A stretch of 64,000 nucleotides of DNA from an uncultured delta proteobacterium (GCA_963830715.1 CAWHNS010000011.1:65243-129242), one strand, 5' to 3'. Counted from the first letter of the stretch, positions 6,517 to 31,050 are shown. Notes: generated from the letters alone by a model not told the origin. Program-made: numbers and translations.

Positions 6517-7743
6517 CTAAGCGGAGGCTCCGCTTTGGAGGACGCGCTCGTAGATGCCAAGAACCATGCACGCGGCGCGATCCCACGAAAACTGTGCCGC
6601 GCGCTGGAGGCCACGCGACACCATGCCCGCGCGCCTGTCGGCGTCATCGAACAGGCTCGCGATCGACGCGGCGAGAGCCTTGAAGTCTCCGGGCGCGACC
6701 ATCAAGGCGGCGTTGCCGACGACTTCGGGAATCGATCCCGCGTTCGAGGCCACCACCGGCGTCCCGCAGGCCATCGCCTCCAGCGGAGGCCAGCCGAAAC
6801 CTTCATGCCATGACGGAAACGCCAGCACGTCCGCCGCTTGATAGAAGGCCCTCAGCGCTTCGTCACTGCGCGGGCTGCCAGCCTGGATAACGCGTCCGGT
6901 CAGGTTGAGTTCCGCCATCAGGCTGGCTTCATCGTCGAAGAAGCCCTCGCCGACGTGAACGAGCCAGACCGGCCCGGCGGGTTGGTCGTTGAGGATACGC
7001 AAGGCGCGCAGAATCGCCGGGACATTCTTGTAGCGTTTTTTTCGTCCGCAGACGCTGAGGACGACTCTCGCCGCTTCGGGAATTTCAAGACTGCGCCTGA
7101 GGCCCGCGATCGCATCCGGATCGTTGCCGGGGCGAAACGCGGGCGACAGGCCCGGATGAACCACGACGGTGCGCTCGGCAACTCGCGGCAGAAACGTACA
7201 CAGGTCGCGCCTGGTCAACTCGGAGTCGGCGATCACGCAAGCGGCGCGCGCCATCACACGCATCCTGAGCATAAAGGTCAGCGAGACCCGCTTTTTGGAA
7301 GTTCGCGGAATAAGTCCGCGCATGCTCAGCAGCGGGATTACGTCGTGGCAAGTGACGATAGTTTTGCGCGCGCCCAGCGCCATCACGAGCTGCGAGTATC
7401 CATGGGTCAGGATGTGGAACAGATCCGCGTCGAGCCGTGCGGCGCGCATCGGATAGTGGAGATAGCGGGTGATGCCGCTGTCGATCCATGTACCTGCGCC
7501 GCCGATCAATCGCCCAACGATCTTGAGCGGCTCGATCTGATAGTCCGCGAATCGCCAGCGATCGCCCGCGTTCGCGCGCAAGGCGCTCTCCAATTCGTTC
7601 GCGTACCTGCGCATGCTGAAGCCGCCATCGCCCTCCTGCCCGCGCAGCAGCATCACCTTGGCTGGTCCCGCCCGTTCGCAGACGCGCCGGTCGGTCTGCG
7701 GTCCGGCGGAATTCAAATGTTCGCCAGCCCTGTTCGCGATCAT
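6517..7743 (-). CDS. GT4-family glycosyltransferase
   Basis: This is the C-terminal 408 aa of the 944-aa track ORF. Motif [34 protein letters not shown] (E-x7-E). ATG 7743 overlaps the upstream stop (ATGA at 7740-7743). Confidence 0.85.
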
Positions 7744-9351
7744 TGCCCGCGTAATCTGTGACGGGCCGCAAATCGTCCGACCAGGCCGGGAGCCGTTTTT
7801 TCGATCAAGCCAAGGACTTCGTAGTCCTCGGCGTCGAGTCCCATGGCAAGCAGCGATCCGCCGAAGGCAACGATGGAGACCGCCGACTTCGCGGCCAGCC
7901 GCGCCAATGGTGCAGTAGGGCCGAACAGATGGACGGCGCAGAGGGCTGCGATGCAAATCAGAGTGGCGATCGCTCCCTTCAAGAACCTGGGATCGTAGGG
8001 CCACAGTCGAAGCGTCCATCCCACCTGAAACAGGTAGGCGATGCTCAGGGCGCAGGCCGCGCACGCGGCCGAGAGCGCCGCACCGGTAATGCCCAGCCGC
8101 GGGATCGCGATCCAGTTGAGCGCGATATCCGCGACCAACACTATCGCGCCGATCTGCGCCGACCGCCTCTGTTGGCCGGTCATCAGCAGGATCGAGATTC
8201 CGGCGCCGGTTCCCACGTTGACAAGTTGCCCGAACGCAAGAATGACCGCCGGCATCGCGCCCGCCGCGTAGATTCGGCCGTACATCACTGTCATCAGGTC
8301 CCGGCTCGCGAAGCATATGGTCAGAAACATCGGCAGGCTCAGATACAGCGCCCACTTGGTGCTTACGCGATACAACTCCGCCAGTACCTGATTTTCCTTT
8401 CGGGCATACGCCGCCCCGATCATCGGAAACAGGATCGAGCTGAAACAGGTCAGGATAATCGTGAATAAAACCGAGCACTGGGAAGCGGCCTGATAGATCC
8501 CGACTTCCGTCGCCGATCGGAAGTGCGCGACGAGCAATCGATCCACCAGAAAGATCAACAGCGTGAAGGTGCCTATCGAGACTGCCGATACGGAAAAGCC
8601 GACCAGCGATCGGATCGGAAACGCCACCCGTGGACCGCGTTCGAAGAGACTCCGGAAAAAGCCGGTGTACATAGCGGATCGCGAGGGCGAGGGCGACTGC
8701 GAGCGAGATAGCAAGCGCAGCCAGAGCGCCGGTCAAGCCCCATCCGGCAAGGTAGAACAAAAGGAAGAGCACGACTGCGATCGCCGGCTGGACGATCGCC
8801 TCGGCGTACACGCTGTACTGCATTTTCTGGGAAATCGTGGTCGCCGTAGCCGCGACTCTGAGGCCGGCAGCGAGAAACAGCGCCGGCGCGATCATCCTGA
8901 TGACCGGTCCCAGCGCGGGCTTTGCGAAAAGCCGGGCGCCGATCCATCCGGCGCTCAGATAGAGAATCGCCGCCGCCACGGCGCCCGAAAGCATCGCGAG
9001 CGCGAAAGACAACCGCATTACGGCCCGGAACCTCTCGCGGTCATCTGCCCAATAACGCGACCCGTAGAAGAGAACTCCGGCGTCGAGCCCGAGCGGCGCG
9101 ATCAGACCTACTATCCGCAGCACCGTCCAGCCGACCGCATAGAGTCCGAAGGCTACCGGACCGAGCAGGCGCGCCAGCGCGATCTGCCCCGCTATCTGAA
9201 TGCCGCGTCCGGAAAGCCGCCCGGCCAGAGTGACCGCGGCTCCCGAGGCGAGGCCGCTCATGTCCTGTGCGCCGGCTCCGGCATCGTGACGCGCGACGCC
9301 AGCCGTCCCGACGGGCGCATCTATCGCAGCAGCCGTGCTCAGTTCAGCCAT
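7740..9351 (-). CDS. wzx: Wzx-type polysaccharide flippase (MOP superfamily), split by a 1-nt frameshift
   Basis: The N-terminal about 230 aa of track ORF 6517..9351 plus ORF 7740..8714 form one multi-TM protein. The join is ...AIRYVHRLF|RSLFERGPRVAFPIRSLVGFS at an A5 run (8656-8660). The total length is not a multiple of 3. Confidence 0.8.
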
Positions 9352-9404
9352 CCTCGATCCGCATAAATTGCCGGCGGGATCGTCGCGATGCGCCGCGGTT
9401 TCAT

Positions 9405-10889
9405 TCAGCCGCCGAGCGTGAACATCACATAGCCTCCGAGCGGCATCGGCAGTTGGCGAACCTGGATTGCCCCCGGGTTCGGTCTCGAAACCGCGCCCGC
9501 AATCGAACCGCGCGGCACGGCGTTAACGCTGATGTTGGTCATGGCGTTCGAAGGCGGCGGCATCGACAGTCCCTCGATATCGATTCTGGTGGGGCCGACG
9601 CCTTGAGGCCAGTTGGTGAGGTTGGGGATCGGCTGTTGTCGCCAGCTCAGTCTCCAGGCGATCACGTTGATCGCTCCGGACGGCTGCTGCGCCGCGAAGC
9701 ATTGCACCACCTGTTGCGGTGAGGTGCATATTAGCCTTTGGCCGTTGAACTCCGCCATTGCTTTCATCGCGATAAAGTAATGTGTGGGTGAGCCGTCTCG
9801 CCGGAACAAGGTCGGCCACCAGTACGGACCATCGTAAAATTCGGAGAGCGAAAGGAAGATCGCGTCGTCGATGCCGACTTCGTCCAGGTCGTGGGCAAAT
9901 TCGAACATCCAGGCCCCCGCCACAGGCTCAAAGTTGATATCGAGATTCGCCGCTGCGGTCATGCCGTACTCCGAGACCGATACATGCGGCGTGAGCCCGA
10001 CAGCAGCCATCTCTGACTGAAGACTCCTGAGCGATTCCTTCATCTTGTTCGCGGATGCGTCGTTGCCGTACGCATGCGTGCTTACGAAATCGAGTGGCAG
10101 ATGATCGGCAGCCGCGACCCTGACCAGTTGCGTGGCCCAATCGGCCTGTCCGCGCCATCCGAGGAACGGCCGCGCGAGCGCCGGTCCGCCCAACTTGATC
10201 GTGAACTCCGGATGCTGCTCCCGATAAGCCGCCACGACTTTGCCGATATGCCGGTACAGAATCACATATGCGTCGAATCCTTCCTGAGCAGCCGGGCCTT
10301 TCCGCGGCTTTACCGCCGCCACCCAGTTGTTGGCCGGGATGTCCATTTCATTGCCCACTTCGAGCTCAACCTTGCTGAACTTCCACTCCTGCGTCAGGTG
10401 CTTGAGAAAGGCTTGCGTGTAACGGTCATAAGTGGGCCACGACGACGGCCCGTACCTCGTTCCGTCGGGCCTGGTTGCCATCAGCGGCGCCGGAACTTTC
10501 AGGCCGATTACCACGCGCGGTATCCATCCGTTGGACTGGCAGAGCCGCAACCCATTTTCCAATATCGGCGACCACTTGAGCTGGAGCGAATCATCGGCGC
10601 CAACCGCCGCGAGGTTGTTATCGCCATTGATTATTCTCATGCGGTAAGTGTTGAGTTCGTGCAGCGCCTGAAATTCGGCCTCCGTCGGATGAGCCTCCGG
10701 GTTGGTTCCGCCCGCCACCAGGCGATGAATCAGCGCGAATTGGTCTGCCGCCCCGGCCACGCTGCCGCCGGCCCCGACTGCGGTGGCCAGTGCGACGCCG
10801 GACAGCAGGGAACGGACCGTGCGACCCCCTCGATTGCGGCCCGCACGTGATTTGGCTTCATGATTGCCGGCGCTGCCATGCACGATCAT
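9405..10889 (-). CDS. Secreted glycoside hydrolase, clan GH-A (TIM-barrel)-like
   Basis: Internal ATG at 10889 with a GAGGAG SD 10 nt upstream. Signal-like N-terminus RSLLSGVALATAVGAGGSVAGAA. Candidate acid/base motif VGNEMD and nucleophile motif VSEYG. It lies in frame with the upstream methyltransferase with no stop between them. Confidence 0.6.
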   Translation of the reverse strand: MIVHGSAGNHEAKSRAGRNRGGRTVRSLLSGVALATAVGAGGSVAGAADQFALIHRLVAGGTNPEAHPTEAEFQALHELNTYRMRIINGDNNLAAVGADDSLQLKWSPILENGLRLCQSNGWIPRVVIGLKVPAPLMATRPDGTRYGPSSWPTYDRYTQAFLKHLTQEWKFSKVELEVGNEMDIPANNWVAAVKPRKGPAAQEGFDAYVILYRHIGKVVAAYREQHPEFTIKLGGPALARPFLGWRGQADWATQLVRVAAADHLPLDFVSTHAYGNDASANKMKESLRSLQSEMAAVGLTPHVSVSEYGMTAAANLDINFEPVAGAWMFEFAHDLDEVGIDDAIFLSLSEFYDGPYWWPTLFRRDGSPTHYFIAMKAMAEFNGQRLICTSPQQVVQCFAAQQPSGAINVIAWRLSWRQQPIPNLTNWPQGVGPTRIDIEGLSMPPPSNAMTNISVNAVPRGSIAGAVSRPNPGAIQVRQLPMPLGGYVMFTLGG

Positions 10890-11828
10890 TTGGTCACCGC
10901 TCCTCAGGATTTTGCCGAAGCTGTCTCTGGTCCGATCTCCGGCTGCGCGACTCTCGATTCTCAGGCCGCCGATAAAATCGGGCCGGCCCGCTTGCGGTCC
11001 GCGAAGTTGAGCTGCGACGCTTTGGAACCGGAAGCGCGGCACGCTCCATTCGATCGCGAGTCTGTCCAGCAACTCGTGCTCCAGATCGGCGTCGGACAGG
11101 ATGAGCGCGCGGCTTGCCAGCCGCGGCCTCACAGTGCGGTATTCGAACTCCATATGCTCCGGGCTATGATCGGAATCATGGATGAAGATGTCGATCGGGG
11201 CCTCGGTCCCGGCCACCTGCGGAAGAAGGTCGCGCGCATCACCGAGGCATAGCCGCCACCTCGATTTGAGGAACTCGGGCACCAGCCAGCCGGGCCCGGC
11301 GATCCCGGGTGGAAGGTCGGTGCTCGGCAGGTCGATACTGACCAGGCGTCCAGCAGCGTTGCGTTCCATCGCGCGCAGGATGATCGCCGAGGAGAGGCCG
11401 TCGTGGACGCCGGTCTCGACAACCTTGGCGGGTTTCAAGGTCCGCACGATCGCGTACCAGACCTTGAATCGTCCCAGTTCGAGGCCGGGCGCTTCCGGGC
11501 CGCGAGTGATGCGGTAGTGTTCGCGCAGCGACGCGACGAAATGACTTTCGCTTTCCAACTCGGCGAATAGATCTTCGACCTGGTCCGGCGGTGAGTCCAA
11601 TATGGCCGCGCAGAAGTTGCGCTCCTGATCGCGGGAAAACGACGGCAAGTACGAGTTGGATCTGGCCCGCGAATCGCCGCTGGCGAACAGACGCAGATGC
11701 CTGGCGAGGCGTGCGGGATCCAGCATCTCGCGCAAGGTTCGCCTGAGCGGCTGCGCGCGAATCCTCCGATAATAGAGCGCGGCCATCTCGATCCGGTTCG
11801 AGGCGGCCTTCTTTGTTCCGCTGCTCAA
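10890..11828 (-). CDS. Class I SAM-dependent methyltransferase (Methyltransf_24/TylF-like); reads through into the hydrolase
   Basis: Motifs VETGVHDGLSSAIILRAM...LVSIDL...IDIFIHDSDHS. The domain appears complete near ...DFIGGLRI, but there is no in-frame stop before ATG 10889. A TGA is available in an alternative frame at 10961-10963. Confidence 0.65.
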
Positions 11829-11861
11829 GCTCTCAATGTTCAGGCGCTCTCGCCCTGATGC

Positions 11862-13345
11862 TTAAAAGTCCGCCGTCACGTAATCCTGCGGCGCGTTCGT
11901 CATGCCATACTTAAGGGCCAGCATCAGGCCGACCGACACGTAGAGATAGCGGTCATACACCGCATTTCCGACCAGGCTGGTAAGCAGCATCACACACACC
12001 GACGCCAGCAGGCCGGTCGCCATCACGTGCGCGAAGCTTCTTGGCGGCGACAGCTTGAACCGCAGCTTCAACGCGAGCGCCAGCACGCATCCCATGACCG
12101 CAAGATAGGAGGTCAGGGCCAGGATGCCGCCGCCCTGGAGCAGCCCCATGTATGCGGCATCAGCGTCGTGAACCCGGCTCATTCCCTGGCCGCTGATCGG
12201 ATCCTCGAGAAATCCGATAAGTGCATAGTGCAATTGAAGCATATGACCGCTGGTGTCCGGTGCTGCGCCCGAAACCGTGCCGGTCAGCCGCTCGACTGCG
12301 GAAAACGCCGCAAACGGGTCAAGTCGATAGTAATTCACAATCGCGAGCACCGCGGCGACGCCGCCGCTAGATAGGTGAGAAGCCATGTCCACACGCGCAG
12401 TTCGAGCGCCACCGCGATCGCGAGCCCTGCAACCGCAGCGACCAGCGCGCCTCGCGAACCGGACAACATGATGCCGATTGCGATGCCTGCCAGGACCACC
12501 AGATAAAGCAGCCGTCTGCGCCAGGTCTTTGCCGTGCATCCGAGCAACACCGCGACCGGCAAGGCAACCGCGCACGACACTCCAAGATGGACCGGCTGCG
12601 AGGTCAGTCCGTTGAACCGGTCGATCCAGGCCTTCGAATTGGTTAGAACTTCCTCCACGTTGGTGAAGCCGAGAAGCTCCAGCACCGATATATAGCCATT
12701 GGCTGCGGCCGAGACGATCCAGAGGTCCGCGATCAGCCGCAGCCGCGCCGGGCTGTTCGCAGTCGCGCCCAAAATCACCGGGACGATCAGCAGCGCGACG
12801 GCGAAATCGGCGTCGACCGCCAGATTGCCCTGCGTAGTGGTTACGTCGTGGGCCTTCGAGACCTGGAGCAGGTCGGTGGGACTGGTGGTCGCCGTGAAGG
12901 TGGCCAGCACGGCCGCCGCCAGAAAAACAAATACGCAGCCGAGCAGCGCGGGCGGGACGCTGCGCCAGAACTCGTCCTTGTTGAGGATTGGCACCGCCAG
13001 GAAGACCAGCGCCATTGCCATCATGACGTCGCTCAAGGTGCCCGGCCCGATGCGAATGCCGTTGAAGGTCACCGTTACGGTGCCAAGCAACACGAACAGC
13101 GTGCCCACGTATTCGATGGCGCTGAGATCGCCGAAGGTGGCGGAGTCCCGCAGCAGGATCAGCGCCGCCGCCACTGCGAGCGGTCCGGCGACCAGCAGAA
13201 GCTCCACGCCGGGCGAGACTCGATGCGAGAGCCTGGAAAGCTCGGGACCGACCGCGAGCGCGATCAGAATCGCCGCTGCGGGCGCAAGCGCGGTGACCGC
13301 GGAAAGTATCGGCAGGCGTCCGCGATCGAGAGTGGGACTAGCCAT
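11862..13345 (-). CDS. O-antigen ligase/Wzy-like polysaccharide polymerase, split by a frameshift
   Basis: Track ORFs 12335..13345 and 11862..12575 are colinear halves of one protein with 10 or more TM helices. Motif IMLSGSRGALVAAVAG (Wzy_C-type loop). The frame switch lies within about 12340-12400. Confidence 0.7.
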
Positions 13346-13417
13346 TCGCGATCCGCGATCGGCAGCTCGCGCGGCGAGGCGTCACGCGCCCAGATGGACG
13401 GTCTTCCGACATTTTGT

Positions 13418-14284
13418 TCATACCGATTGGGCGCCCGCGTGACGCACTCCGACCTTCCACGATGAAAGATCCCGGTCCACCAATTCCTCGAGCATCTCGA
13501 CCTCCGGCAGCAGCATCGTGCGCAGTTTCGCTTCGGTCGGGGCGGGAAGTTTCGGAAAATCGCCGCCGCCGCCGAAGACCAGCTTGCGAAGCCCGGCGCG
13601 ATCGGCCAGCCGGACGATTCGGCCCAGCCCGTTGAAGTTCAGCGCGCCAGCGAGGGCGTGGGCCAACCGGGTGATCGAATCCGCGCGCGGAATGGAGAAT
13701 TTTTCCGATGACGCTACTCGCGGCATTTGATCGATCCCGAACGCCGGAATGTTCAGGAACGCGCACACGCGATCGAGATAGGCTTGCGGATGCGCTTCGA
13801 GGTCATCGTAAAAGATCGCCAGTACCGCATCGTCGCCGAAAGCGTTGCGCCATTCACGCAGATAGAACGCATAGCGCCTGGATTCGGACAGTTCCGGATC
13901 GCGAACCACCGCTTCTTCGAACGTAAGGCTCGTATCCGCGTACGCGCGCTTGAGCCGGTAGAGCGAGTACAGCCTGTCGAGCGGATCCCGAAATGAACAG
14001 ATAATCCGCGCGCGCGGGACGAGTTCCCGGATGCGGCTGCGCGCGAGCTCCGAGCAGAAATAGGTCGGCGCGATCTCGCCCATCCGGAGAGCCGGCTCGA
14101 TCGGTCCGAACTGGGCAAGGTACCAGTCAAGTCCGCGGGAGAATCGTCGATCGAAGAAGCGAGTCTCCTTGAATGTCCTCGGCAGAGAGACGTGTCCCCT
14201 TAGCACGGTATCGAGCCAGGTCGTGCCGGTGCGCGGAGGGCCGACCGCGAAGAAATCGGGCAGTCTCCGATCGCGCGCACTCAT
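13418..14284 (-). CDS. PAPS-dependent sulfotransferase
   Basis: 288 aa. 5'-PSB motif FAVGPPRTGTTWL and 3'-PB motif SFRDPLDRLYSLY, both read directly from the track translation. Confidence 0.85.
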   Translation of the reverse strand: MSARDRRLPDFFAVGPPRTGTTWLDTVLRGHVSLPRTFKETRFFDRRFSRGLDWYLAQFGPIEPALRMGEIAPTYFCSELARSRIRELVPRARIICSFRDPLDRLYSLYRLKRAYADTSLTFEEAVVRDPELSESRRYAFYLREWRNAFGDDAVLAIFYDDLEAHPQAYLDRVCAFLNIPAFGIDQMPRVASSEKFSIPRADSITRLAHALAGALNFNGLGRIVRLADRAGLRKLVFGGGGDFPKLPAPTEAKLRTMLLPEVEMLEELVDRDLSSWKVGVRHAGAQSV

Positions 14285-14368: not shown

Positions 14369-15637
14369 TTATGGCGGCGAGAACGAAATCATGCTGCGCT
14401 GCGGATCGCGCCTGGCGGTCAAAGCGGCTATCTCAGCTTCGGTTTCGCGCAGAATGCGATCGCGGTCCCAATGCACGCGGGCGTAAGCACGGCCCCGCTC
14501 GCCCATCGATGCCCGGCGGGCGGGATCCTCGCGAAGCCGCATGACCGCGTCGAGCAGCGCGGCGGGGTCCTCGGGCGCGACGACGACGCCGCCTCCGGAC
14601 TCAGTCATCACGCGCGCGATCTCGCTGCCGGGGCTGAGCGAGGCTACCACCGGCCGTCCGGCCGCGAGCAAGGTCAGGGTCTTCGAGGGAAATACTATGT
14701 CGCCGACCGTGCGTTGCTGGGCAATGAGGCAAAGGTCGGAGGCCGCGAGCATTTCCAGAAACGTCTCGCGCGGCTGCAGCGGAAGAAACATCACGTTCGA
14801 GAGGCGCAGCTGCGCCGCTTGCGCCTCCAGGTCGGCCCGCGCCGCCCCGCCTCCCACCAGAAGGAAGATCACGCCGGGTTCCCGGCATCGTTCAGCAGCG
14901 CGCAGGATGACGTCGAGGCCCTGCTTCGCGCCCATGTTCCCGGCATGGACGACCAGGAATTTGCCTTCGAGACCGAATCGCGTCCTGAACAACTGCCCCT
15001 CGCTGCCCGGCGGAACCATGAACAACTCCGGGTCCGCCCAATCAGGAAGGAGCCTGACTTTCGAGGGATCGAAGCCCTTGGCGACTATCTTCCGGCACAT
15101 CGCCTCCGTCAGCGTCGATACGAATGCGGCTTGCCGGTACGCCATTCGTTCCAGCGCGTAAAGCGCCCTGCTGATACCGGCGCGAGGCAACATGCCCAAG
15201 TCGACCGCGGTGTCCGGCGCAAGATCGGTGACGTGGAACACGTACGGAATCTTCCAACGGCGCTTGAGCAGCATCGCGGTCGCCGCGTTTCCGAGCGGCG
15301 GCGACGCCACGAAGAGCACGTCGGGGCGCCGCCTGCTGATCGCGCTCGCCAGCGAAGATGCCACGAACGAGGCCTCGTGCAGAATTCTCCGGATCGCGGT
15401 CGGCCGGCGCGGTACATACAAAAGTGTGCGGACTATGTCGACGCCGTTGTGCGCTTGCTTCGCAAATATACGGTGTGAGTATTCGCTGGAAATGCGCCAT
15501 TCCGGATAGTACGGGAAGGCCGTGCATACGGTCACTCGATGCCCCGCGGAAGCCAGGTATTCGCACTTGCCGGTGGTAAACACGGCGCTGCCGGTCATCT
15601 CCGGCCAGTAGTTCATGGCAAGCGCCAGAATGTCCAT
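14369..15637 (-). CDS. GT4-family glycosyltransferase (WcaI/WbuB-like)
   Basis: 422 aa. N-terminus MDILALAMNYWPEMTGSAVFTTGKCEYLASAGHRVTV is typical of WcaI-type GT4 enzymes. C-terminal Rossmann half reads FPSKTLTLLAAGRPVVA. Confidence 0.85.
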   Translation of the reverse strand: MDILALAMNYWPEMTGSAVFTTGKCEYLASAGHRVTVCTAFPYYPEWRISSEYSHRIFAKQAHNGVDIVRTLLYVPRRPTAIRRILHEASFVASSLASAISRRRPDVLFVASPPLGNAATAMLLKRRWKIPYVFHVTDLAPDTAVDLGMLPRAGISRALYALERMAYRQAAFVSTLTEAMCRKIVAKGFDPSKVRLLPDWADPELFMVPPGSEGQLFRTRFGLEGKFLVVHAGNMGAKQGLDVILRAAERCREPGVIFLLVGGGAARADLEAQAAQLRLSNVMFLPLQPRETFLEMLAASDLCLIAQQRTVGDIVFPSKTLTLLAAGRPVVASLSPGSEIARVMTESGGGVVVAPEDPAALLDAVMRLREDPARRASMGERGRAYARVHWDRDRILRETEAEIAALTARRDPQRSMISFSPP

Positions 15638-15642
15638 CTATC

Positions 15643-19542: not shown

Positions 19543-19590
19543 ATCCTCCCGAGCGCGATGGCGTGTTGACGGCGCCGCGCAGTCCGGTAT

Positions 19591-20640: not shown

Positions 20641-21127
20641 GATAGCGCCTGCCTCGCCCGATTCTCAAAGCGATCCCGGCAGGAACGGAACGCGGTCATG
20701 GCCTGCCGCGGACAGAGTGGCCGCTGATCAGATTTCAGCGTGATGGACGCCCGGTCTCGATCAATTCATTACTCGCCGCGAAGCCGCCACACCGCATCAT
20801 AGTCATTCCGATGCCCGATCCTGCGAAACACCCGCACAATTGGATATCCAGTATGGTTCATAGTAAGCAAGTGGCTATCGTGCGATTCGCGACAGCCTAT
20901 TCGGGAAATTGGGCAAGCGATCGAGCACAAGGAAATCGGCTACTCGCGCGTCCGCCCTCCCTCGAACCGGGCCTTGACCAACGTCGCGGCCTCAGCGCGC
21001 TTGACCCCACCGAGGATTCCCGCGCTCTGCCTCTAAACCCAAAAACCTTGCCAGAAGCCGACGACCCTTGTCAAGGTCGAGACTAATCGAGGGTGATCGC
21101 GACTCGCCCGGCGGGCCGCGCGGCTCC

Positions 21128-21982: not shown

Positions 21983-22023
21983 CAGTTTCGCAAATTCGCT
22001 TCCGCGTCAGACGAAACACGATC

Positions 22024-22833
22024 ATGGACCAAGGCCCTGAAGCTTGCCATACTTCGGGCGCGATGGCGGCCAAAGAAGCGGAGCGGTCCGGGTCGATGGC
22101 GCCGGCGGATTATCGCGAACGGATCTACCGGAGCTTCGTGAGCGTGGGACGCCTGGAGTCTCCGGTATCGGTGCTGGATTTCGAGCCGCTGCGCCCATAT
22201 CTCACGCGGCTTATCCGCCGTCACTTCCCGGCAGACAGGCAGGCCTCGATCCTCGAACTTGGATGCGGCCATGGAGCCTTGATTTACTTTGCAACCCAGG
22301 CCGGATACCAAAACATGGAAGGCATTGATACGTCGCCGGAGCAGGTTGCTTGCGCCGCAAGGCTCGGGATTGCGGGCGTTCGCCTGGGTGACGCGATGCA
22401 AACGCTTGCCGCTGCGCCCGACGGTTCCAGGGACGTAATCGTCTGCTACGACCTGATAGAGCATCTGGTCAAACCCGAGTTGATCGATTTTGCCGACAGC
22501 GCCCACCGGGTGCTCAGGCGAGGCGGAACATTGATACTGCACACCGTGAACGCAGAGTCACCCTTCGGCTCGCGAATCCGGTACGGGGACTTCACCCACG
22601 AATTGGCGTTCACGCGCCAATCGATCGGCCAGCTTCTGCTCTCAGCGGGCTTCCGCGACGTGCGCTGCTTCGAGCACGATCCGGTGGTCCACGGAATCAA
22701 GAGTGCCGTGCGCTGGACTCTATGGAAGGCGATACGTTGCGGGCTGCTGCTCTGGCTGGCGGCCGAAACCGGAGAATTGACGCGAAGCCCCATCCTGACC
22801 CAGGCGTTCCTGGCCGTCGCGACGCGGGGCTAG
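22024..22833 (+). CDS. Class I SAM-dependent methyltransferase
   Basis: Motif I ILELGCGHGALIYF and post-motif VIVCYDLIEHL. It is the only plus-strand gene inside the EPS string. The start may be a later ATG. Confidence 0.8.
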   Translation: MDQGPEACHTSGAMAAKEAERSGSMAPADYRERIYRSFVSVGRLESPVSVLDFEPLRPYLTRLIRRHFPADRQASILELGCGHGALIYFATQAGYQNMEGIDTSPEQVACAARLGIAGVRLGDAMQTLAAAPDGSRDVIVCYDLIEHLVKPELIDFADSAHRVLRRGGTLILHTVNAESPFGSRIRYGDFTHELAFTRQSIGQLLLSAGFRDVRCFEHDPVVHGIKSAVRWTLWKAIRCGLLLWLAAETGELTRSPILTQAFLAVATRG

Positions 22834-22864
22834 CAAGCGGAACTGTTTCCCGCTGGAAGTTCTG

Positions 22865-23920
22865 TCACGCGAAGGTCAATAGCTGCGACTCGCGATAGGG
22901 CTTGATCACCCTGTCGTTCAAGAGCAGCCCGAGTATGAAGAATCCCGGAGTAAGCAAGGCGACGATCGCGCAATCGATCAGCGTCCACGGCTGATCACGC
23001 ACTGCCGGGACGTAGGCCGGCTGAACGACTACGAAGGCGAAATCGGACTGCACCTGGGCGGTGGCTTCGGCCTGCATCTGCATCGCGATTAACTGATCGA
23101 GCTGCGCGAGCAGCAGGCTGTCCGAGGTGCTCATGGCCTGGTCTTCCATTGATTTGATTGCTGCGCTAGCGACGCTTACCGCGCGCAATCGAAGCAATTC
23201 CCTGAGGCTGTCGATGTAGAACTGCAGAACCTTGGTCGCCATTCGCGGATCGGGATCAAGGAAACTCACGTCCATGTTGCCGAGTTTGTCGTCATACGAG
23301 ACGTTGAACAGGTCGCCCATCCTGTCATACAGCTTCCATCGAGCGTACGGGTCGAAGCCCATCGCGACCTCGATGGAGCGAAAGAGGATTTTGAAACGCT
23401 CGACCACCGATGACGACGGCCGGGCCTTCCGCGGCAGGATCCGATCGGCCAGGTGCAGCCGGTCGATGACGCTCATGGTGAAGCCGTAGCTGGTGAGGAT
23501 GGCCATCTCTTCCTCGGCATCCCAGGCCGAGGAGCCTATGCCGAGCGACGATCCGATCGAGCTGGCGACACTGCTCAGTCCCGTGACACCGAGAATGCCG
23601 CCGTTGTAGGTGGGACCCTCCTGCGAAGCGGGCCGCAAAGTCGCATCGGCGCGATACCATCGGGTCATCATGAACTGGGTGAACAGGAAGCTGGCGGTCA
23701 CGGTGGCCGCCGTTGCAGCCAGCATCCATCGCCACCACGGCCGGACCAGCAACAGAAGATCGAACAAGTCGATCCCTTCGCGACGAGCTGATTCGCTCTG
23801 ATCGGAGGGCGCCCACGACCGGGTGCGCCCCCGCCGCTGACCGGTGCCGGGTTTGTCCACTTTAGGGTTTGCTCGCTCCCAGGGTGAGAGCGCGGCCGAT
23901 TCCCTCAATGCTGGGTTCAA
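22865..23920 (-). CDS. PCP/Wzz-like membrane protein, paralog 2
   Basis: 351 aa, colinear with paralog 1 (TRWYRA..RPASQEGPTY.GGILGVTGL...LLLAQLDQLIA...QSDFAFV..QPAYVP.VRDQPW). The track start overlaps the upstream gene. GTG 23860, 1 nt after the upstream TAA, is a likely true start. Confidence 0.6.
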   Translation of the reverse strand: MNPALRESAALSPWERANPKVDKPGTGQRRGRTRSWAPSDQSESARREGIDLFDLLLLVRPWWRWMLAATAATVTASFLFTQFMMTRWYRADATLRPASQEGPTYNGGILGVTGLSSVASSIGSSLGIGSSAWDAEEEMAILTSYGFTMSVIDRLHLADRILPRKARPSSSVVERFKILFRSIEVAMGFDPYARWKLYDRMGDLFNVSYDDKLGNMDVSFLDPDPRMATKVLQFYIDSLRELLRLRAVSVASAAIKSMEDQAMSTSDSLLLAQLDQLIAMQMQAEATAQVQSDFAFVVVQPAYVPAVRDQPWTLIDCAIVALLTPGFFILGLLLNDRVIKPYRESQLLTFA

Positions 23921-25634
23921 AGTCAGCCGAGATCAAGAGCATCGCGCGCACCGTGTCCGCACCCCGCACGAAGTTCATTTTGTTGACGTACTCGACCGCA
24001 CCCCGCACGTGAATTCCGAACAGGCCTCCATCCAGGCGCGCCAGAGGTTCCGGCAGCCGGAGCAGGTCCAGATAGAACCCCACGCTTCTTTCCTTATCGA
24101 TATTGATGGGATGCGGCCCGAACGACCGCGGCGAGCGCTCGGTGGCAAACAGATCGAAAGTGAGCTTGTCCTGGAACTTGAACCAGCGGCCGACGTTCAA
24201 GTCTATCTCCGAACCGTTGTTTCCTATCGGATCGCCCATGAGGCGATCCTTGTAAGTCCAGTATAGCGAGTCCGAGTGAATTGAGTAATCGGGACTAAGT
24301 ATTCGATACTCGAAGCCGGCGGTAGTCAGCCCGTCAGATGTAAGCCGGGGCACGTTGACTCCCCCCTGCCACGAAATCGCTTTGAACGGCAGTCCTCCGC
24401 CAATCAGCGGTACTTCCTTGCTCAGGTTGTCCTCGCCGAGCAGTTCCTGGTAGAAAAAAGTGTTTCTGAGCCGCGGGATGCTGAACCTGAAGAACAGTCC
24501 CCCGCGCGAGTTGGTATTGCCCGTCGCGGCAGTCTGCGTATCGAATCCGGTGGCGCGCCCGAGAAATCCCGCCACGCTATACTGATCGTTGCCTCGGCCC
24601 CCGAACATGATTGCGTGGTCGAGGCCCAATTCGACGTTGGGCAGTATCTTCCAGCCGAACACCTGCCCCGAGATCCACGGACGCGAATACTGGCGTCCGT
24701 GGTCGAGCTGTCCGAAGAAGGCTTGACCCTCGAACGGCCCAAGATATTCCAGCCAACCCGGCAGGTAGGTGGGATGGATGTTTTGCAGGCGCAACGCCGG
24801 AAACGGCTGCGCGTTGTTGCTCTGCGAAAGGTACGCCGCATGGCCGACGCCCGAGGCCATCTCCGCCTCGCCGAAAGAAAGCGCGGCGTTGCCGAGACTG
24901 GCCACCACTTCCCCTCGCAACAACCGAAAGCGACCGGTATCGGCCGGCCCGCGCGTGATCGGTCCGGCCATTGCGCCCTCGCCGTACGCCGTCAGGAACG
25001 AGTGGAAGCCGCCCCAGGCCGACCAGCGCGCGATCTCGTTGCTGCCCGGCGCGGTCGGCAAATCGTCGTTGTTGGGCAGCAGCGGTGTGGCCTCCTGCGC
25101 CTGGATCTCCTCGCCCGCGTCATGATTGATCGACGCGCGGCCCGGACCGCGGGAGTAAACGTACTGAGCTTCCAGCCGTTCGATCGGATGGAGCATCGTC
25201 GGAAGGTTGTCCTCCTGGTTATGCTCCAGCCATCCGACTTCTTCCCTAAGCTGGAGGCGCAACGATTTTATCAACTGGCGCGCCATCGGACCGAAGGTGT
25301 CGAGCGAGCTGGCCTCGCTTTCGCTGCGGTCCAGCAACCGTTCGGCTTCGAGCGTGAGCCGCGCCGCCTCGATCCGGCTGATGGGCTTGATCTCGCTCAC
25401 GTGCTTCTCGATTATGCCGAACTCCTCGAGCGTATCGAGTTCGGTATAGATGGGGCTGTCGAGAGGGATATAAACGACGTAGGTGGATGCGCTGACGGGA
25501 ATCGCAAGCCACAGACAGAAGCCCATCAAGCCGGCGGCGAGGCCAGCCGATCGAATCCCCCCTGCTGTGGCCAGCCCGACGTGATTGCGCGCGCCCGCGC
25601 CATCGCGCGGGCCGATATCAGGCCGCGACACCAT
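23862..25634 (-). CDS. wzi: Wzi-like capsule-assembly outer-membrane protein, paralog 1
   Basis: 590 aa with a signal peptide ending AIPVSA|S. N-terminal YVVYIPLDSPIYTELDTLEEFGII...IKPISRIEAARL motif of the Caps_assemb_Wzi family, followed by a beta-rich remainder. Confidence 0.7.
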   Translation of the reverse strand: MVSRPDIGPRDGAGARNHVGLATAGGIRSAGLAAGLMGFCLWLAIPVSASTYVVYIPLDSPIYTELDTLEEFGIIEKHVSEIKPISRIEAARLTLEAERLLDRSESEASSLDTFGPMARQLIKSLRLQLREEVGWLEHNQEDNLPTMLHPIERLEAQYVYSRGPGRASINHDAGEEIQAQEATPLLPNNDDLPTAPGSNEIARWSAWGGFHSFLTAYGEGAMAGPITRGPADTGRFRLLRGEVVASLGNAALSFGEAEMASGVGHAAYLSQSNNAQPFPALRLQNIHPTYLPGWLEYLGPFEGQAFFGQLDHGRQYSRPWISGQVFGWKILPNVELGLDHAIMFGGRGNDQYSVAGFLGRATGFDTQTAATGNTNSRGGLFFRFSIPRLRNTFFYQELLGEDNLSKEVPLIGGGLPFKAISWQGGVNVPRLTSDGLTTAGFEYRILSPDYSIHSDSLYWTYKDRLMGDPIGNNGSEIDLNVGRWFKFQDKLTFDLFATERSPRSFGPHPINIDKERSVGFYLDLLRLPEPLARLDGGLFGIHVRGAVEYVNKMNFVRGADTVRAMLLISADFEPSIEGIGRALTLGASKP

Positions 25635-25646
25635 CCATGCGCTCGG

Positions 25647-28600
25647 CTAGAGCTTGGTCCCGAGCAACGCGATAACGGCCAGCGCCTGTGCGCTGTTCGC
25701 GAATATCGAACTCACATCGACTGCGTACTGCAGGTTGATGTACGACTGGATGTCCTGCGGCACGTAGACCGTGTCGCCCGGTTCGAGCGCCGCATCCATC
25801 AGACCGCCGGTAACTACCGACATGAAGGGGAAAGTATGAGACTCGCTCAATCCCTGGCTGGTCACCACGGCGCCATCGGCCTTGATAATCATAACGTGCT
25901 TCTTGTCGGAGAACGGCGTGTAGCCGCCGGCCCGGTCCAGGTAATCCTGAACAGTCAGGGCGTTTTGCGCGATGATCGAAGTCGGCTGGTAAACCTCGCC
26001 AAGCACGTTGACCGACGAGGGCATCTTGGGAACCGCGATGTAATCCTGATCCTGCACCAGCAGGTCGTCTGAGGACCCGGTGAGCACATCGAGCGCCTTC
26101 TTGGGCGACGACGACATGTGAACCACTACCCGGCCGACCGCCTGCTGGTTTTGGAACTGGCCCAGCATGGTCTCCAGCCCGGCGAGCGCGGCCGAACTAT
26201 CCGAAGCTCCGCCGGAAGTGGAGGTGGAGCCCTTCGCCACCAACGGACTGATCAGTGCGAACTGGGCGATACTCTGCGAGAGTTGCGCCGTGGCGGTGTT
26301 GAGCTGCTGCTGCTCCAACAGCTTGGTGGTGGCGCGCGTGAACACGATTCCGCGCGGGAATGCATCTGCGCGGAACCCTCCGCATTCGTGCAGGAGCGCG
26401 CTCAGGCGCTCGCCCTCGCTGATTACGTAAAGGCCGGGGCGCATCACCTCGCCCCCGACGCTGACGACCCACGGCAGATGCCAGTTGCTCGCGACTGCCA
26501 CGAATACCTGGTCGTTCCTCTGCAGAATCGGGTCATCCTCGCGGCTTCCGCTCAATGCTTTCTGGAGGTTGACATCGATGTAGTAGTAGCGGGCGTGCGC
26601 GCCGTTCGACGACTTCTGTGCGTATCAGCCGAATCTTCTCCCGGTACGCGTCGTCCTTGAGACCGCCCGCCATGTAGATCAGGTCGCTGACCCGGGTGTC
26701 CAGATTGAGCGGATACTGCCCTGGCTGGCGAATCTCGCCCTGGATCTGGACCGTCGCCAGGTCGCGCAGGTTGTCTTCGTTGAAGATGTCGAGTTCGTCC
26801 TTGTCGTACAGCAGAGCGTCATCCGGTCCGCCCGGATGGTTCAGTGCGGCCTCGAGATCCACCGAGATGTTGCGCTGGCGCAGCGAAGGCTCTTGCAGTC
26901 TCTTGATCAGCGCGTACCCGAAGAAGGTATGGTAGTTGACGCCCTCGCCGAGCTGGACCAGATCCGAGACCCGTAGCCCGTGGCGCCACTGGAATTCGCC
27001 CGGACGACGCACGTTGCCCGTCAACTCGACCACGGCGCGGTGCTCGGGCAGGACGTGATAAACGCGCAACAGGTCCCCGTCGTGAATCAGGACGTGTTTC
27101 GAGTCGAGCTGCGACATGGCTACGTCAACCGCCACCATGCGGCGATGGTTATCGACTCTCAGAATTTGCGCGCGCTCGGTGTTGCTGAACGGGCCGACCC
27201 CGCCGGCAAGTTTCAGCGCTTGCCGAACAGTGCCCGTGGTTCCCGGCAGCTCGTAGATGGCGGGGCGGTTCACGTCGCCCACGACGCCCACCACTGATCC
27301 GACCACCGGGACGAAAATCACGTCGTTGTTCTCGACCCGAACGTCTCCGGCGTCATCACCCCGCATCAGCATGTCGTAAAAGTCGATTACCTGGATGATC
27401 TGGTTGTTGCGGCGCAGTTGCACCCTGCGCAAGCTTCCGATCTTCTGCGGCCCGCCTGCCGCGACCAGCGCCGCCGACACTCTGGACAAGCCGCTTACGG
27501 TGTACGTTCCGGGCTGGTTTACCGCGCCGATCACGTAGAGCTGCACTGTCCTCAGCTGCCCCATCGTGACCTGAATCATCGTGCCTTTGATCAGGCTGAC
27601 GCGCTCATCGATGAGCTTCTTGGCCGTGGCGAAGGTCAAGCCGCCGATCTGCAGAGGTTCGACGTTGGGAATCTCTATCTGGCCATTGCGATCGACCTGG
27701 AGAGTCAAGGTCTGATTGATGCGCCCCCAGAAGTAGAGAATTAACTGGTCGCCGGGTCCGATGACGTAGTCATCTCCCACCGGCACGTTGCCGACCGGCG
27801 CGAAGGTCGAGACCGCGGTCAGGAACACCGAATCAGCCGAACTGGCCCAGCGGCTGATTAATCGGACTCGGCGTGGTCGGCGTCATCCCGAGATCGACCT
27901 GGTTGAATCCTTGCTCGATCGGGCTTGGCTGCTGGCTGGCCATGTATCCCGGAGACATCTGTCCCGGCTGCGATTGAGCGCCCGGCTGCGAGACGCCCGG
28001 CTGCGGCGGCAGGCTCGTTTGCATCGAGGGTTGCATCCCCTGGGGGATCTGCGGCGTTATTCCCTGCGCGCACGAGAAGGCCTGTGCAAGAAGCTGCGGG
28101 TTACTTACCCCGGCCGCTTGCGCCATGGCTTGAATCTGTCCCTGGCTGATCCCGCTGGCGGCCAGACGCGCACACAGTTTCTGGACCTGATCCTGAGACA
28201 CGACGCCGGTCGAAATCTGGCCGAGCAAATTCTGCGCGTCTTCGGGCGAGACTCCAAGCTGCCCAAGGAAGGTGCTGATCAGCTGCGGGCTGAGCTGACT
28301 CAGCGCACCCGCTATGCCTCCGAGCGGCAACCCGCCCGGCGCAAGGGCAGTGGCCGCGCTCTGCGATCCGTTCTGCGATCCCATCGGACCAAGCGGCATC
28401 GCCGTTCCCGGCGCGAGCGGGACCATCGGCGTAGCGCCCATCATTCCGGGCGCCATCGGCGCAGCGCCCATCATTCCGGGCGACTGGTACTGATACGGAC
28501 TGGTCATCGATCCGGGAGCACTTGGGTAGCTTGGATAACCAGGATTGGCCGGGTAGGGCGAGTAGCCGGAGGGAGGCTGCGAGGTTGGGTATCCGGGCGC

Positions 28601-28984
28601 GCCGGGCGCCATCGATGGCGGCGCGGAATAAGCGGGATTCGGTGGCATCGATCCGGGTGCGCCTTGCGTTTGGTACATCCCGGGCTGCGAGGGCGGGGCT
28701 CCGTAGGCGCCCTGCGGCGGCGCCCCGTTAGGCGAAGCGCCATAGCTGGATGGCGGAGTACCGTAGTTATATTGCTGGTTCGGAGGGAACTGAGACTGGA
28801 CGGGAGATCCGTACGGCTGAGTGGGATAGCCGAATTGCCCACCGTTGAGCGTCGTGCTGCTGCCGTTGACGAGCTGCGCGCGCGCGGTTTCGCATACGCA
28901 AAGCAGCGCGCAGATCGCGATCGCACACGGCAGAGCGCCGGACACTGATATCGAACCCGGGAAAACCAACTTTGAGAACTTCAT
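25647..28984 (-). CDS. wza: Giant Wza-like polysaccharide export protein (signal peptide, uncharged low-complexity region, Q-rich region, Poly_export plus multiple SLBB-like units), split by two frameshifts
   Basis: Three colinear track ORFs: 27833..29287, 26533..27828 and 25647..26555. Start ATG 28984 (GGAG SD; MKFSKLVF...CETARA). Junction 1 is PLGQFG|DSVFLTAVSTF at 27833-27836. Motif DYVIGPGDQLILYFWG. Junction 2 lies near 26600-26628 (...REKIRLI / KSSNGAHARYYYIDVNLQ). Confidence 0.8.
28424..28483 (-). repeat. Tandem 30-bp coding repeat (2 copies, 2 mismatches) inside the exporter low-complexity region
   Basis: 28424-28453 and 28454-28483 (catcggcg[t/c]agcgcccatcattccgggcg[c/a]) encode PGMMGAAPMA / PGMMGATPMV. 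Confidence 0.9.
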
Positions 28985-29353
28985 GCCTGTCTCCGCCCCT
29001 ATTTGTCTCAGCCCCTGTGGGGATCTTGAATCGCTCGAGCCGAATCGATCTCTACGACGGGAATCTTCGTTCCGGGCCTTTTCGATGCGACCGGCAGGAT
29101 GAGCAAAGCATCGCCCGCGTCCGCCGTTCTGTGAACAGGCCTCCGGGTCGCAGATTCCTGCCTCCGCCGCTGGATCGTTACGGCTGCATGACAGCTTCGC
29201 CGCGAAATCAAAAGCGTTTCGCGGCAGCCTGAAAACATCGCAGGAATGTCCATTGAAATCAAGGTCGAAGATTTCTGCCTCCGTCACCGATCATTGCCGC
29301 TGCCTGAGCGACTTCCCGGCGCGGTGGGGACTTGCGCTCGCGCGCCCGCTCGA

Positions 29354-29362
29354 TGGTATAGT
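29354..29362 (+). promoter_or_regulatory. Extended -10-like element (TGgTATAGT) upstream of wzi paralog 2
   Basis: tggtatagt at 29354-29362 sits 12 nt before ATG 29375, implying a very short or absent leader. The only -35-like element I see (ttgcgc) is about 19 nt upstream. Confidence 0.3.
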
Positions 29363-29374
29363 CGCCTGCAAATA

Positions 29375-31050
29375 ATGGGGTTCGCGCGCAAAGTCCTGCT
29401 GCTGGCGGCGCTCGGAGCATGGTGGTGCATCGCTTCGGCGGCGCCGGCGGGCGCCTCGACCTACGTCGTATACATCCCGCTCGATAGCCCGATATACGAC
29501 GAACTCGATACGCTGAATGGCCTGGGTTTGCTCGACAGCTATCTGTCCGAGATCAAGCCGATTAGCCGAATCGAGGCGGCTCGGCTGACTATCGAGGCCG
29601 CCGGAAACTTGCCCTCATCGGAAAAGAACAACGCGCTCGCCCGATCGGTACTCGACGCGCTGCGTTCCGAATTGAGAGAAGAGATCGGGTGGCTCGACAA
29701 CAACGCTGAAGATGGACAACCGACCATGGTTCATCCGCTGCAGCGCGTCGAAGCCCAGTACATCTTTTCGCGCGGCGAGCAGCGCTTCTGGGACACCGGC
29801 GGTACCGGAGGCCTTCACGCGCAAGAAGGCACACCGCTACTGCCGAACAACGACGGGATCCCGACCGGGGCGGGAAGCAACGAGGTGCTGCGAGCGAGCG
29901 GGTGGGGCGGCTTGGCGGGATTCCTGACCACATATGGAGAGGCCGCGGTCACCGGCCCGGTCACGCATTCGCTTTCCAATGCGGAGAGGCTCCGGCTCCT
30001 GGGCGGCGAAGCGGTCGTCAGCGCGGGCAACTTCGCGCTCTCCTTCGGGCAGGAGGAAATGGCCTGGGGGACCGGTCATTTCGCCAGCCTGTCGCAGGGA
30101 AATAACGCAGCCCCGTTTCCTGCGCTGAGGGCCCAGAACATCCATCCGACCCTGCTGCCCGGCATCCTTCGCTACCTGGGTCAATTCCGTTACCAGATTT
30201 TCTTTGGGCAACTCGACAGCGATCGGTATTTCGCTCATCCGTGGATCGACGGCCAGATCTTCAGTTTCAAACCGCTGCCGACTTTCGAATTCGGCCTTAC
30301 TCACACAATTGATTTCGGCGGCCGCCACAATGATTTCTATTCTCCGCTTGGCTTTCTGGGACGCGCCACCGCCTTTTCGACCGGATCGGTTTCCGCAGGC
30401 AATACGCACCAGCGTGGCGGCGTATATCTGAGATTCTTCATCCCCAGCCTTAGAAATGTTCAGGTGTACCAGGAGATCGTCGGGAACGACAATCTGACTG
30501 CCGAAGTTAGCCCGGTCGGCCGATTCCTCCCGTTCCTTTCTGTTTCCTACCAGGGCGGCTTCTATCTTCCGCGACTGACCGCAGATGGCCGCACCGATCT
30601 GCGCTTCGAATATGCCTTGCTCGAACCGAACGACCAGCAGCATAGCGACTCGTTGTATTGGACGTACAACGGCTGGCTGATGGGCGACGGGCTCGGCCCA
30701 ATTCCACAGAGGTCAACGTGCAGATCGGCCGATGGTTTCGCGGCCTCACCAAGGCCAGTGTCGATGTCTTTTACACCGAACGCGCGCCCAAGTTTGATAC
30801 CAACACCCAATATCCAGCCGCAACCTACGGCGGCGCGCTCACCAAGGAGCGCAGCGGAGGGGTGGCTTTCGACCTTCTGCGCCTCCCGCAGAGTACTCAA
30901 TGGATTAGCAATATATTACTCGATGGCCGCGCTCGAATTGCATTTGAGTACGTCGATCACCTGAACTACGGCGGGCCCGGCGAATTTCGGGCCCTGGTGA
31001 TGCTCTCGACCAGCCTGACCCCGACCTGGTCGAGTCTCGCGTGGCGCTAG
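29375..31050 (+). CDS. wzi: Wzi-like capsule-assembly outer-membrane protein, paralog 2, split by a 1-nt frameshift
   Basis: Start ATG 29375 (MGFARKVLLLAALGAWWCIASAAPAGA|S). YVVYIPLDSPIYDELDTLNGLGLL motif. Track ORFs 29246..30964 and 30658..31050 join at LMGDGLGP|NSTEVNVQIGRWF at a C3 run (30697-30699), matching paralog 1 (LMGDPIGNNGSEIDLNVGRWF). Confidence 0.7.

Follow-up and report, generated by a model that had tools for sequence, protein, structure and literature searches.

A Wzx/Wzy-type surface-polysaccharide locus with an embedded sulfotransferase in an uncultured Candidatus Binataceae genome, and its predicted sulfated and methylated product

What does a bacterial surface-polysaccharide locus make when a sulfotransferase gene lies among its assembly genes, and by which route would the product leave the cell? 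Here we address this question for a 24.5-kb locus at positions 6517-31050 of a stretch of 64,000 nucleotides (hereafter the window) deposited under the name of an uncultured delta proteobacterium (GCA_963830715.1, CAWHNS010000011.1:65243-129242). The reading that we favour, with a probability of about 0.58 and on the strength of sequence comparisons, is that the locus directs the Wzx/Wzy-dependent assembly of a capsule or exopolysaccharide of Candidatus Binataceae, whose lipid-linked repeat unit would be sulfated and methylated in the cytoplasm and whose chain would be exported through Wza without a kinase. The steps of the pathway (priming, extension by glycosyltransferases of family 4 (GT4), flipping, polymerisation and export) follow from homology, and the chemistry of the polymer, sulfate and methyl groups alike, is inferred. 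The host is indicated by the tgt gene product (Tgt, 60210-61355), which is 72-84% identical to its listed matches; those that carry an organism name are all Candidatus Binataceae except one labelled Deltaproteobacteria, and the window therefore comes from the genome of an uncultured soil bacterium of the Binatia (Binatota) in that family. In public records its proteins occur on one contig of 138 kb.

The gene at the centre of the question encodes an enzyme that would use 3'-phosphoadenosine-5'-phosphosulfate (PAPS) as donor:

13418-14284, minus strand: PAPS-type sulfotransferase, 288 amino acids (aa); Sulfotransfer_3 1e-19 and Sulfotransfer_1 4.9e-16, both above the Pfam cut-offs

It shares its strand with the glycosyltransferase gene GT4b and the putative polymerase gene wzy, between which it sits, 84 and 72 nt away respectively. 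An earlier reading of this DNA from the sequence alone (the sequence-only reading) had proposed an embedded 288-aa sulfotransferase, and the protein indeed carries both motifs on which that proposal was built (PPRTGTTWL and RDPLDRLYSLY) besides its Pfam matches. In the PDB it matches best the sulfotransferase domain of heparan NDST1 (8.6e-16) and the heparan 3-O-sulfotransferases (3-OST, 6.6e-11), and as structural matches carbohydrate sulfotransferases outscore the cytosolic and tyrosylprotein enzymes. In the alignment with NDST1, PPRTGTTW falls on PKTGTT, the 5'-phosphosulfate-binding loop; KETRFF falls on EEIQFF, the carrier of the catalytic Glu; and FRDPLDRLYSLY falls on NPADRAYSWY, the 3'-phosphate-binding motif. 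Arg in place of Lys in a loop of the PKTGTT type is known in other sulfotransferases, for example the tyrosylprotein enzymes. Three elements, GPPRTG[TS][TS]W, KETRFFD with the catalytic Glu, and FR[DN]P..R..SLY, are invariant across 22 relatives of the protein. The comparisons support a predicted active site that is complete, with its PAPS motifs intact. No transmembrane or hydrophobic segment and no signal peptide were found in the protein, which should therefore act in the cytoplasm, the site of PAPS synthesis. An exact-sequence look-up of the protein returned nothing on record.

Is the surrounding DNA truly a polysaccharide locus? Open reading frame (ORF) listing and scans with Pfam and NCBIfam models describe 6517-31050 as a surface-polysaccharide locus of the Wzx/Wzy type, dense in polysaccharide-assembly genes. 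The G+C content of the window is about 62%, which makes long spurious ORFs common, and reading frames were therefore set by a plot of G+C by codon position together with a codon-usage Viterbi procedure trained on the intact genes of the window. The Wzx/Wzy-type character proposed by the sequence-only reading was borne out by Pfam matches both before and after frame correction, the scan of indel-corrected ORFs giving full-length matches for Wzx, the priming transferase, the short-chain dehydrogenase/reductase (SDR), Wza and the second Wzi protein. All of these components lie at the coordinates given below, and their support from hidden Markov models is far beyond chance. The genes for assembly, export and sugar transfer are:

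6517-7743, minus strand: GT4c glycosyltransferase, 408 aa; Glycos_transf_1 2.1e-29; its ATG overlaps the Wzx stop (ATGA)
7740-9351, minus strand: Wzx flippase of the MOP family, about 537 aa; frameshift near 8672, beside an A5 run at 8656; frame-corrected, Polysacc_synt_3 1.4e-20 (covering 2-288 of 293) and Polysacc_synt 5.6e-16
11862-13345, minus strand: Wzy-like repeat-unit polymerase, about 494 aa; frameshift near 12360
14369-15637, minus strand: GT4b glycosyltransferase, 422 aa; Glyco_trans_4_4 1.5e-22 and Glycos_transf_1 6.5e-17
15723-17185, minus strand: WbaP-like priming polyprenyl-phosphate sugar-1-phosphate transferase, about 487 aa; frameshift near 16496; frame-corrected, Bac_transf 1.2e-62 and CoA_binding_3 6.4e-8
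17187-18434, minus strand: GT4a glycosyltransferase, 415 aa; Glycos_transf_1 1.2e-30
18456-19542, minus strand: SDR-type NAD-dependent sugar epimerase/dehydratase, about 325 aa; frameshift near 19205; frame-corrected, Epimerase 5.4e-24 covering 1-235 of 240
19591-20640, minus strand: small Wzz-like co-polymerase a, 349 aa, lacking a kinase domain; Wzz E=0.0017; transmembrane segments 40-58 and 287-305
22865-23920, minus strand: small Wzz-like co-polymerase b, 351 aa; Wzz 6.2e-6, 26.9 bits, above the cut-off of 25.5
23862-25634, minus strand: Wzi-like outer-membrane protein 1, 590 aa, with signal peptide; Caps_assemb_Wzi 2.1e-44
25647-27828, minus strand: Wza-type outer-membrane polysaccharide exporter, about 727 aa; frameshift near 26607; frame-corrected, Poly_export 2.6e-13 and six SLBB domains (4.8e-52)
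27833-28984, minus strand: secreted low-complexity protein, 383 aa; signal peptide, then about 340 residues rich in P, G, Q and S
29246-31050, plus strand: Wzi-like outer-membrane protein 2, divergently transcribed; frameshift near 30708; corrected, Caps_assemb_Wzi 2.2e-50

The Wzz-like pair shares 66% identity, with hydrophobic segments at the N- and C-termini of each protein; the two Wzi proteins are 55% identical. From Wzz-a (20640) down to GT4c (6517) the genes share one strand and either overlap or lie about 0-160 nt apart, and for this part the near-unbroken minus-strand string that had been described from 28984 to 6517 holds, whereas a methyltransferase gene further up (see below) lies on the plus strand. 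An interval of 487 bp at 20641-21127, without a consistent coding frame and slightly lower in G+C, divides the block holding two methyltransferase genes and the export genes from the Wzz-a-to-GT4c string; a scan of 19000-31600, this interval included, for promoters and terminators gave counts at or below the shuffled expectation. A 944-aa ORF at 6517-9351 was considered as a Wzx-GT4 fusion and rejected as a frame chimera of two genes on the plot of third-position G+C (GC3) and the codon-usage Viterbi path: Wzx starts at 9351, switches frame near 8672 and stops at 7740, and the separate GT4c begins with the ATG at 7743. The product of 27833-28984 (16% P, 13% G, 12% Q) matched no Pfam family, and its ORF stops 4 nt before the GTG of wza in a different frame. 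This P/Q-rich ORF may be the true N-terminus of Wza, a single long exporter having been split by an indel.

Taken together, the genes would outline the following pathway. The WbaP-like transferase would prime undecaprenyl phosphate and the three GT4 enzymes would lengthen the repeat unit, which with the priming enzyme suggests at least four sugars; the SDR epimerase is probably the source of one of these. O-sulfation and O-methylation of the lipid-linked unit, by the sulfotransferase and the methyltransferases, would precede flipping, an order suggested by the cytoplasmic donors, PAPS and S-adenosylmethionine (SAM), and by enzymes lacking signal peptides and membrane segments. Wzx would then flip the unit and the Wzy-like protein polymerise it, with the two small Wzz-type co-polymerases present; the large multi-SLBB Wza would export the chain, and the presence of two Wzi proteins points to retention of the polymer on the surface of the cell. 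Since neither a Wzc kinase nor Wzb is encoded nearby, tyrosine-kinase cycling would have no part in chain-length control or in export. The lack of a bacterial tyrosine kinase and of Wzb, already put forward by the sequence-only reading, was confirmed within the window: a six-frame Walker-A scan found its only genuine motif in an ABC transporter at 51506, no low-molecular-weight phosphatase motif of the C-x-G-N-x-C-R-S type occurred in a real ORF of the window, the ORFs of the locus are all accounted for with no kinase or phosphatase among them, and the co-polymerases are of Wzz size and free of a kinase domain.

The Wzy-like protein has about 11-12 hydrophobic segments and a large loop at aa 336-408. 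After correction it reaches Wzy_C at 9.8e-6 (25.9 bits, below the gathering score of 31.7), besides weak matches to NCBIfam polymerases and ligases. Because the Wzy_C family includes O-antigen ligases and the match is sub-threshold, the product could instead be an O-antigen, or else a glycan attached to protein or lipid A-core, with this protein as the ligase, a scheme that would also suit co-polymerases of Wzz size (polysaccharide co-polymerase class 1, PCP-1) lacking a kinase. We hold it to be very unlikely: Wza and two Wzi proteins are hallmarks of an exported capsule or exopolysaccharide and not of an O-antigen, and the protein is the only one of Wzy_C type, so that a polymerase would be missing were it the ligase. 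An exported polymer remains our preferred reading.

How far does the case for methylation go? The candidate genes are:

10892-11786, minus strand: class I SAM methyltransferase of the Methyltransf_24 family; Methyltransf_24 2.7e-17
21128-21982, minus strand: possible FkbM-type methyltransferase, 284 aa, weak; Methyltransf_21 E=0.002, 18.7 bits, below the cut-off of 22.7
22024-22833, plus strand: class I SAM methyltransferase (Methyltransf_23/11/25), 269 aa; Methyltransf_23 1e-17, Methyltransf_11 7.7e-14

Three methyltransferases had been claimed, of which two are solid (Methyltransf_24 and Methyltransf_23/11) and the third is weak and sub-threshold. In this FkbM-like product the motif-I-like VEFGVGNG was the only methyltransferase feature seen, a sequence search of the PDB gave no meaningful relative, and a single-sequence structure model reached a predicted local distance difference test score (pLDDT) of 32 and was unusable. 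The strand of the gene at 22024-22833 was settled by G+C at codon positions, which matches the plus strand; the 186-aa minus-strand ORF at 21982-22542 was rejected as a gene, being a shadow of the plus-strand methyltransferase by the same measure and by Pfam. No hydrophobic segment or signal peptide was found in the methyltransferases.

The remaining enzyme of the locus is a putative polymer-degrading one:

9405-10891, minus strand: secreted GH39-like glycoside hydrolase (clan GH-A); ATG at 10889-10891 after GAGGAG, then a signal-peptide-like segment

As assembled, this hydrolase belongs to an 807-aa ORF that runs in one frame, with no stop between the Methyltransf_24 N-terminal third and the linker and hydrolase (the public gene call is 793 aa). 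The 807-aa protein retrieved only itself and one weak match in a word-indexed homologue search. With the C-terminal 441 residues of this protein (9405-10730), an exhaustive HMMER search of 1.84 billion sequences found 117 representatives at E<=1e-3, the nearest of them being 40% identical. Nearly all of these relatives are 450-520 aa long with the match beginning at residue 30-70, which marks them as stand-alone secreted proteins, and a methyltransferase-hydrolase fusion occurs in none of the 117. The two parts of the ORF are most probably separate cistrons, and a one-base indel near 10950 would put the methyltransferase stop in another frame; a true fusion is possible.

The residues N127/E128 and E254, which include the catalytic Glu residues, are invariant across 44 aligned relatives. 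An AlphaFold model of the hydrolase built on the alignment of its relatives (pLDDT 92.6) was compared by Foldseek, in which GH39 enzymes (xylosidases) came best (E 1e-19, TM-score 0.69-0.72), followed by PslG and then by GH30 and GH79 enzymes. The modelled fold shows the features of GH39, namely a (beta/alpha)8 barrel, an N-E acid/base after strand 4, a nucleophile Glu after strand 7 and a C-terminal beta-sandwich; by sequence it stays below the Pfam threshold for Glyco_hydro_39 (E=0.002, 17.4 bits against a cut-off of 26). Adopting a conservative view, the model supports the description of the protein as GH39-like. In this form the secreted glycanase of the sequence-only reading stands, with a signal peptide, a GH39/PslG-like model and an invariant pair of catalytic Glu residues. 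With PslG of Pseudomonas aeruginosa (psl operon; PDB 5BX9 and 4ZN2) it has in common a signal peptide, a TIM-barrel with beta-sandwich and a gene within a polysaccharide synthesis cluster (Foldseek E 3e-15, TM-score 0.63-0.66, about 13% sequence identity). It differs from PslG in being sub-threshold for Pfam GH39, in belonging to a very small family and in being read through from a methyltransferase as assembled. The hydrolase would act on the polymer as PslG does on Psl, trimming or releasing it either in the periplasm or extracellularly.

Several observations weigh against the reading of a sulfated, methylated and exported polymer. PAPS-synthesis genes are lacking in the window; the Wzy_C match is below its gathering score; the wza ORF of the assembly encodes no signal peptide; and one of the three methyltransferases (21128-21982) is unconfirmed, below the Pfam cut-off. 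No syntenic relative of the locus was found among the relative loci, in the homologue search or in metagenome scans (those made with Wzi1 and with the Wzz-like pair gave no relatives), and conservation is therefore unusable as evidence for the locus; capsule loci are normally variable between genomes. Most close relatives of the sulfotransferase (45-52% identity) stand alone among housekeeping genes, so the usual acceptor of the family need not be a capsule. Finally, six or seven of the 18 genes of the locus are frameshifted, at a density somewhat above that of the rest of the window. The last two points each open on an alternative and are considered in turn.

Does the sulfotransferase serve this polymer at all? 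The enzyme belongs to a large soil family whose members are about 50% identical to it: a word-indexed search returned more than 1,300 relatives (as 90% clusters), none above 53% identity, with source names from Acidobacteriota, mainly Terriglobales and Candidatus Sulfotelmatobacter. On clustering, the protein of the window is a singleton, 44-53% identical to the rest and closest, by a narrow margin, to a single small subfamily. We surveyed 80 loci around its relatives in species-representative genomes, with 10-kb flanks; these are mostly from Terriglobia/Acidobacteriota, with a few from Binataceae, Verrucomicrobiia, Eisenbacteria and Aquilonibacter. No neighbouring family was common to more than 20 of the 80 loci, the sampled neighbours were housekeeping genes (major facilitator superfamily transporters, ClpB, MtnA-like, LemA, peptidases), and tblastn of every protein of our locus against the 80 found almost nothing, with a sensitivity that is limited for distant families. 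An ordinary unsulfated capsule would fit this picture if the sulfotransferase, brought here by chance or by a recent insertion, acted on another acceptor (a lipid, lipopolysaccharide, a glycoprotein or a small molecule), and both its isolated position in the family and the placing of most of the 80 closest genomic relatives outside glycan loci, with no conserved neighbour, agree with such a view. We nevertheless consider it unlikely, as the gene is packed co-directionally between a GT4 gene and wzy, the best solved relatives of its product are polysaccharide sulfotransferases, and the nearest subfamily together with two further contexts is glycan-related (flippase, glycosyltransferases, glycosidases).

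The adjacency of other family members to glycosyltransferases, a flippase and glycosidases supports the reading of a sulfated polymer, and it is seen in two kinds of context. The first is a module conserved in Binataceae-type contigs (L004 1-12121; L007 2176-19778; L084/L085 1-12151; also L086 10001-20831 and L090 1152-9156), composed of a membrane-fusion/outer-membrane pair, a Polysacc_synt flippase, a tetratricopeptide-repeat protein, a PMT_2-like protein of 1,186-1,246 aa, GH42-like proteins and, besides a Gal-3-O-sulfotransferase-like enzyme, a member of the window's sulfotransferase family. Its make-up suggests a system, so far uncharacterised, that produces a doubly sulfated glycoconjugate. 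The second consists of four tandem paralogous sulfotransferases (L033 5739-11829 and L070 6109-10819). Both of these lie on large contigs of metagenome-assembled genomes labelled 'delta proteobacterium', and the tandem of L033 is interleaved with a GT4 and a GT2 gene. The window holds the only member of the family seen in a canonical Wzx/Wzy/Wza/Wzi locus. The family is plausibly carbohydrate-directed, and its commonest members give no clue to the acceptor. As a separate observation, about ten Terriglobia loci (including L012, L014, L017, L032, L035, L050 and L059) pair a stand-alone sulfotransferase with a divergent 360-aa neighbour, adjoining it upstream on the opposite strand and weakly similar to the Methyltransf_24 domain of the window.

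The function of the locus depends on whether its frame breaks are assembly errors, six or seven of its genes being affected. Those in Wzx, Wzy, the priming transferase, the SDR epimerase, Wza and Wzi2 would be real if the locus were a decaying, non-functional capsule cluster. To this end one may cite the count of six or seven breaks in 24.5 kb as against about four in the other 39.5 kb, the distance of most breaks from long homopolymers, and the intact state of several long housekeeping genes of the window (AcrB, Tgt, QueA, SecD). Nevertheless the coding signal (GC3 and codon usage) runs on undiminished across every break, the corrected proteins match full-length domains and have accumulated no in-frame stops, and unrelated genes outside the locus are frameshifted as well (the flanking phosphoesterase, a sulfatase in which sense is lost after residue 195 or so, and an SDR epimerase gene), which is typical of long-read consensus errors. 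We therefore regard decay as quite unlikely and the breaks as very probably errors of assembly. Homopolymers as their cause were considered and rejected, only the break in Wzx adjoining a run (A5). The only independent sequence is a short-read contig of 996 bp (run ERR12036785, L087), identical at 996 of 996 positions to 21108-22103 of the window; it was the sole return of an exact-sequence look-up of the FkbM-like protein, confirms the sequence of that gene and places the organism in that run.

Elsewhere in the window, the frameshifted sulfatase just mentioned, which is of formylglycine type with a CAPAR motif, is encoded 12.8 kb from the locus (43872-45155, plus strand; Sulfatase 9e-43). An RND efflux operon occupies 31926-37580 and adjoins an SDR epimerase/dehydratase gene (37582-38337, minus strand; Epimerase 6e-45) that lacks the first 60 or so residues. 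At 51407-54684 (plus strand) lie genes for an ABC ATPase, an ABC-2 permease and an ABC_transp_aux protein (GldG-like), where an ORF overlap of 550 nt suggests a further frameshift.

Which known systems does this architecture resemble? The group 1 capsule system of E. coli and Klebsiella combines Wzx/Wzy assembly with Wza, Wzb, Wzc and Wzi. Our locus has in common with it the mode of assembly, the Wza exporter and Wzi; it differs in lacking a Wzc kinase and Wzb in the window, with two co-polymerases of Wzz size instead, and in having a Wza of about 727 aa with six SLBB domains, two copies of Wzi and the added tailoring by a sulfotransferase and methyltransferases. For sulfation, the closest parallel is the xss cluster of Synechocystis sp. 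PCC 6803, a Wzx/Wzy system with embedded sulfotransferases whose product, synechan, was chemically shown to be sulfated (PMC8205485). Both clusters encode a priming transferase, more than one glycosyltransferase, Wzx and a co-polymerase, with Wzy in xss and a Wzy-like candidate here, and in both sulfotransferase coding is embedded among these genes; xss, in contrast, is cyanobacterial and plasmid-borne and has two sulfotransferases, eight glycosyltransferases and the regulators XssQRS (PMC8205485). Its co-polymerase is of the kinase-bearing class PCP-2a, unlike ours, no exporter is encoded in the cluster, and among the genes listed in that source there is no methyltransferase, hydrolase or Wzi (PMC8205485).

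The wps-1 cluster of Actinoplanes missouriensis likewise combines Wzx/Wzy/Wzz with a sulfotransferase of heparan-sulfate type, a SAM methyltransferase and a glycoside hydrolase, the sulfation of its product being predicted only (PMC13390465). Unlike our locus, it belongs to a Gram-positive actinomycete and lacks Wza and Wzi, and it has a second sulfotransferase (of Gal/GlcNAc type), a protein-kinase-like gene and a hydrolase that is GH26 rather than GH39-like (PMC13390465). In Vibrio sp. KMM 8419 sulfotransferase genes also stand in a surface-polysaccharide cluster, the product of which is chemically sulfated; export there is by an ABC transporter and PAPS is supplied by the cluster's own cysDNC, with nothing of the kind in the window (PMC11641403). 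The sequence-only reading had presented loci such as this as uncommon. They are rare, yet less unusual than it implied, since xss and wps-1 share the combination of functions (PMC8205485, PMC13390465); a Wzx/Wzy architecture bearing a sulfotransferase is already known from two other phyla. What distinguishes the present locus is its phylum, the kinase-free Wza/Wzi export set with duplicated Wzz and Wzi, and the GH39-like enzyme of a very small family.

The value of these findings is limited by a chemistry that is predicted, an uncultured organism, a frameshifted assembly and an architecture with precedents. Bacterial sulfated polysaccharides are still stated to be confined to cyanobacteria (PMC8205485, PMC13390465), and a search of the literature for sulfotransferases or sulfated polysaccharides of Binatia or Acidobacteria found nothing relevant. 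We tentatively propose that members of Binatota may coat themselves with a sulfated, O-methylated capsule made by a kinase-free Wzx/Wzy route with duplicated co-polymerases of Wzz size and two Wzi proteins, and that the sulfotransferase may come from an uncharacterised heparan-type family (more than 1,300 clusters, mainly Terriglobia/Binatia) that would mark a widespread and unrecognised production of sulfated glycoconjugates in soil. If true, such production would run counter to the published, near-exclusively cyanobacterial view. The locus would also add to the cases in which export through Wza proceeds in the absence of a Wzc kinase. Sulfated polysaccharides are prized as biomaterials, and the Binatia locus, together with the many Terriglobia/Binatia relatives of its sulfotransferase, would supply candidate enzymes for polysaccharide sulfation and widen the predicted range of organisms that make sulfated polymers.

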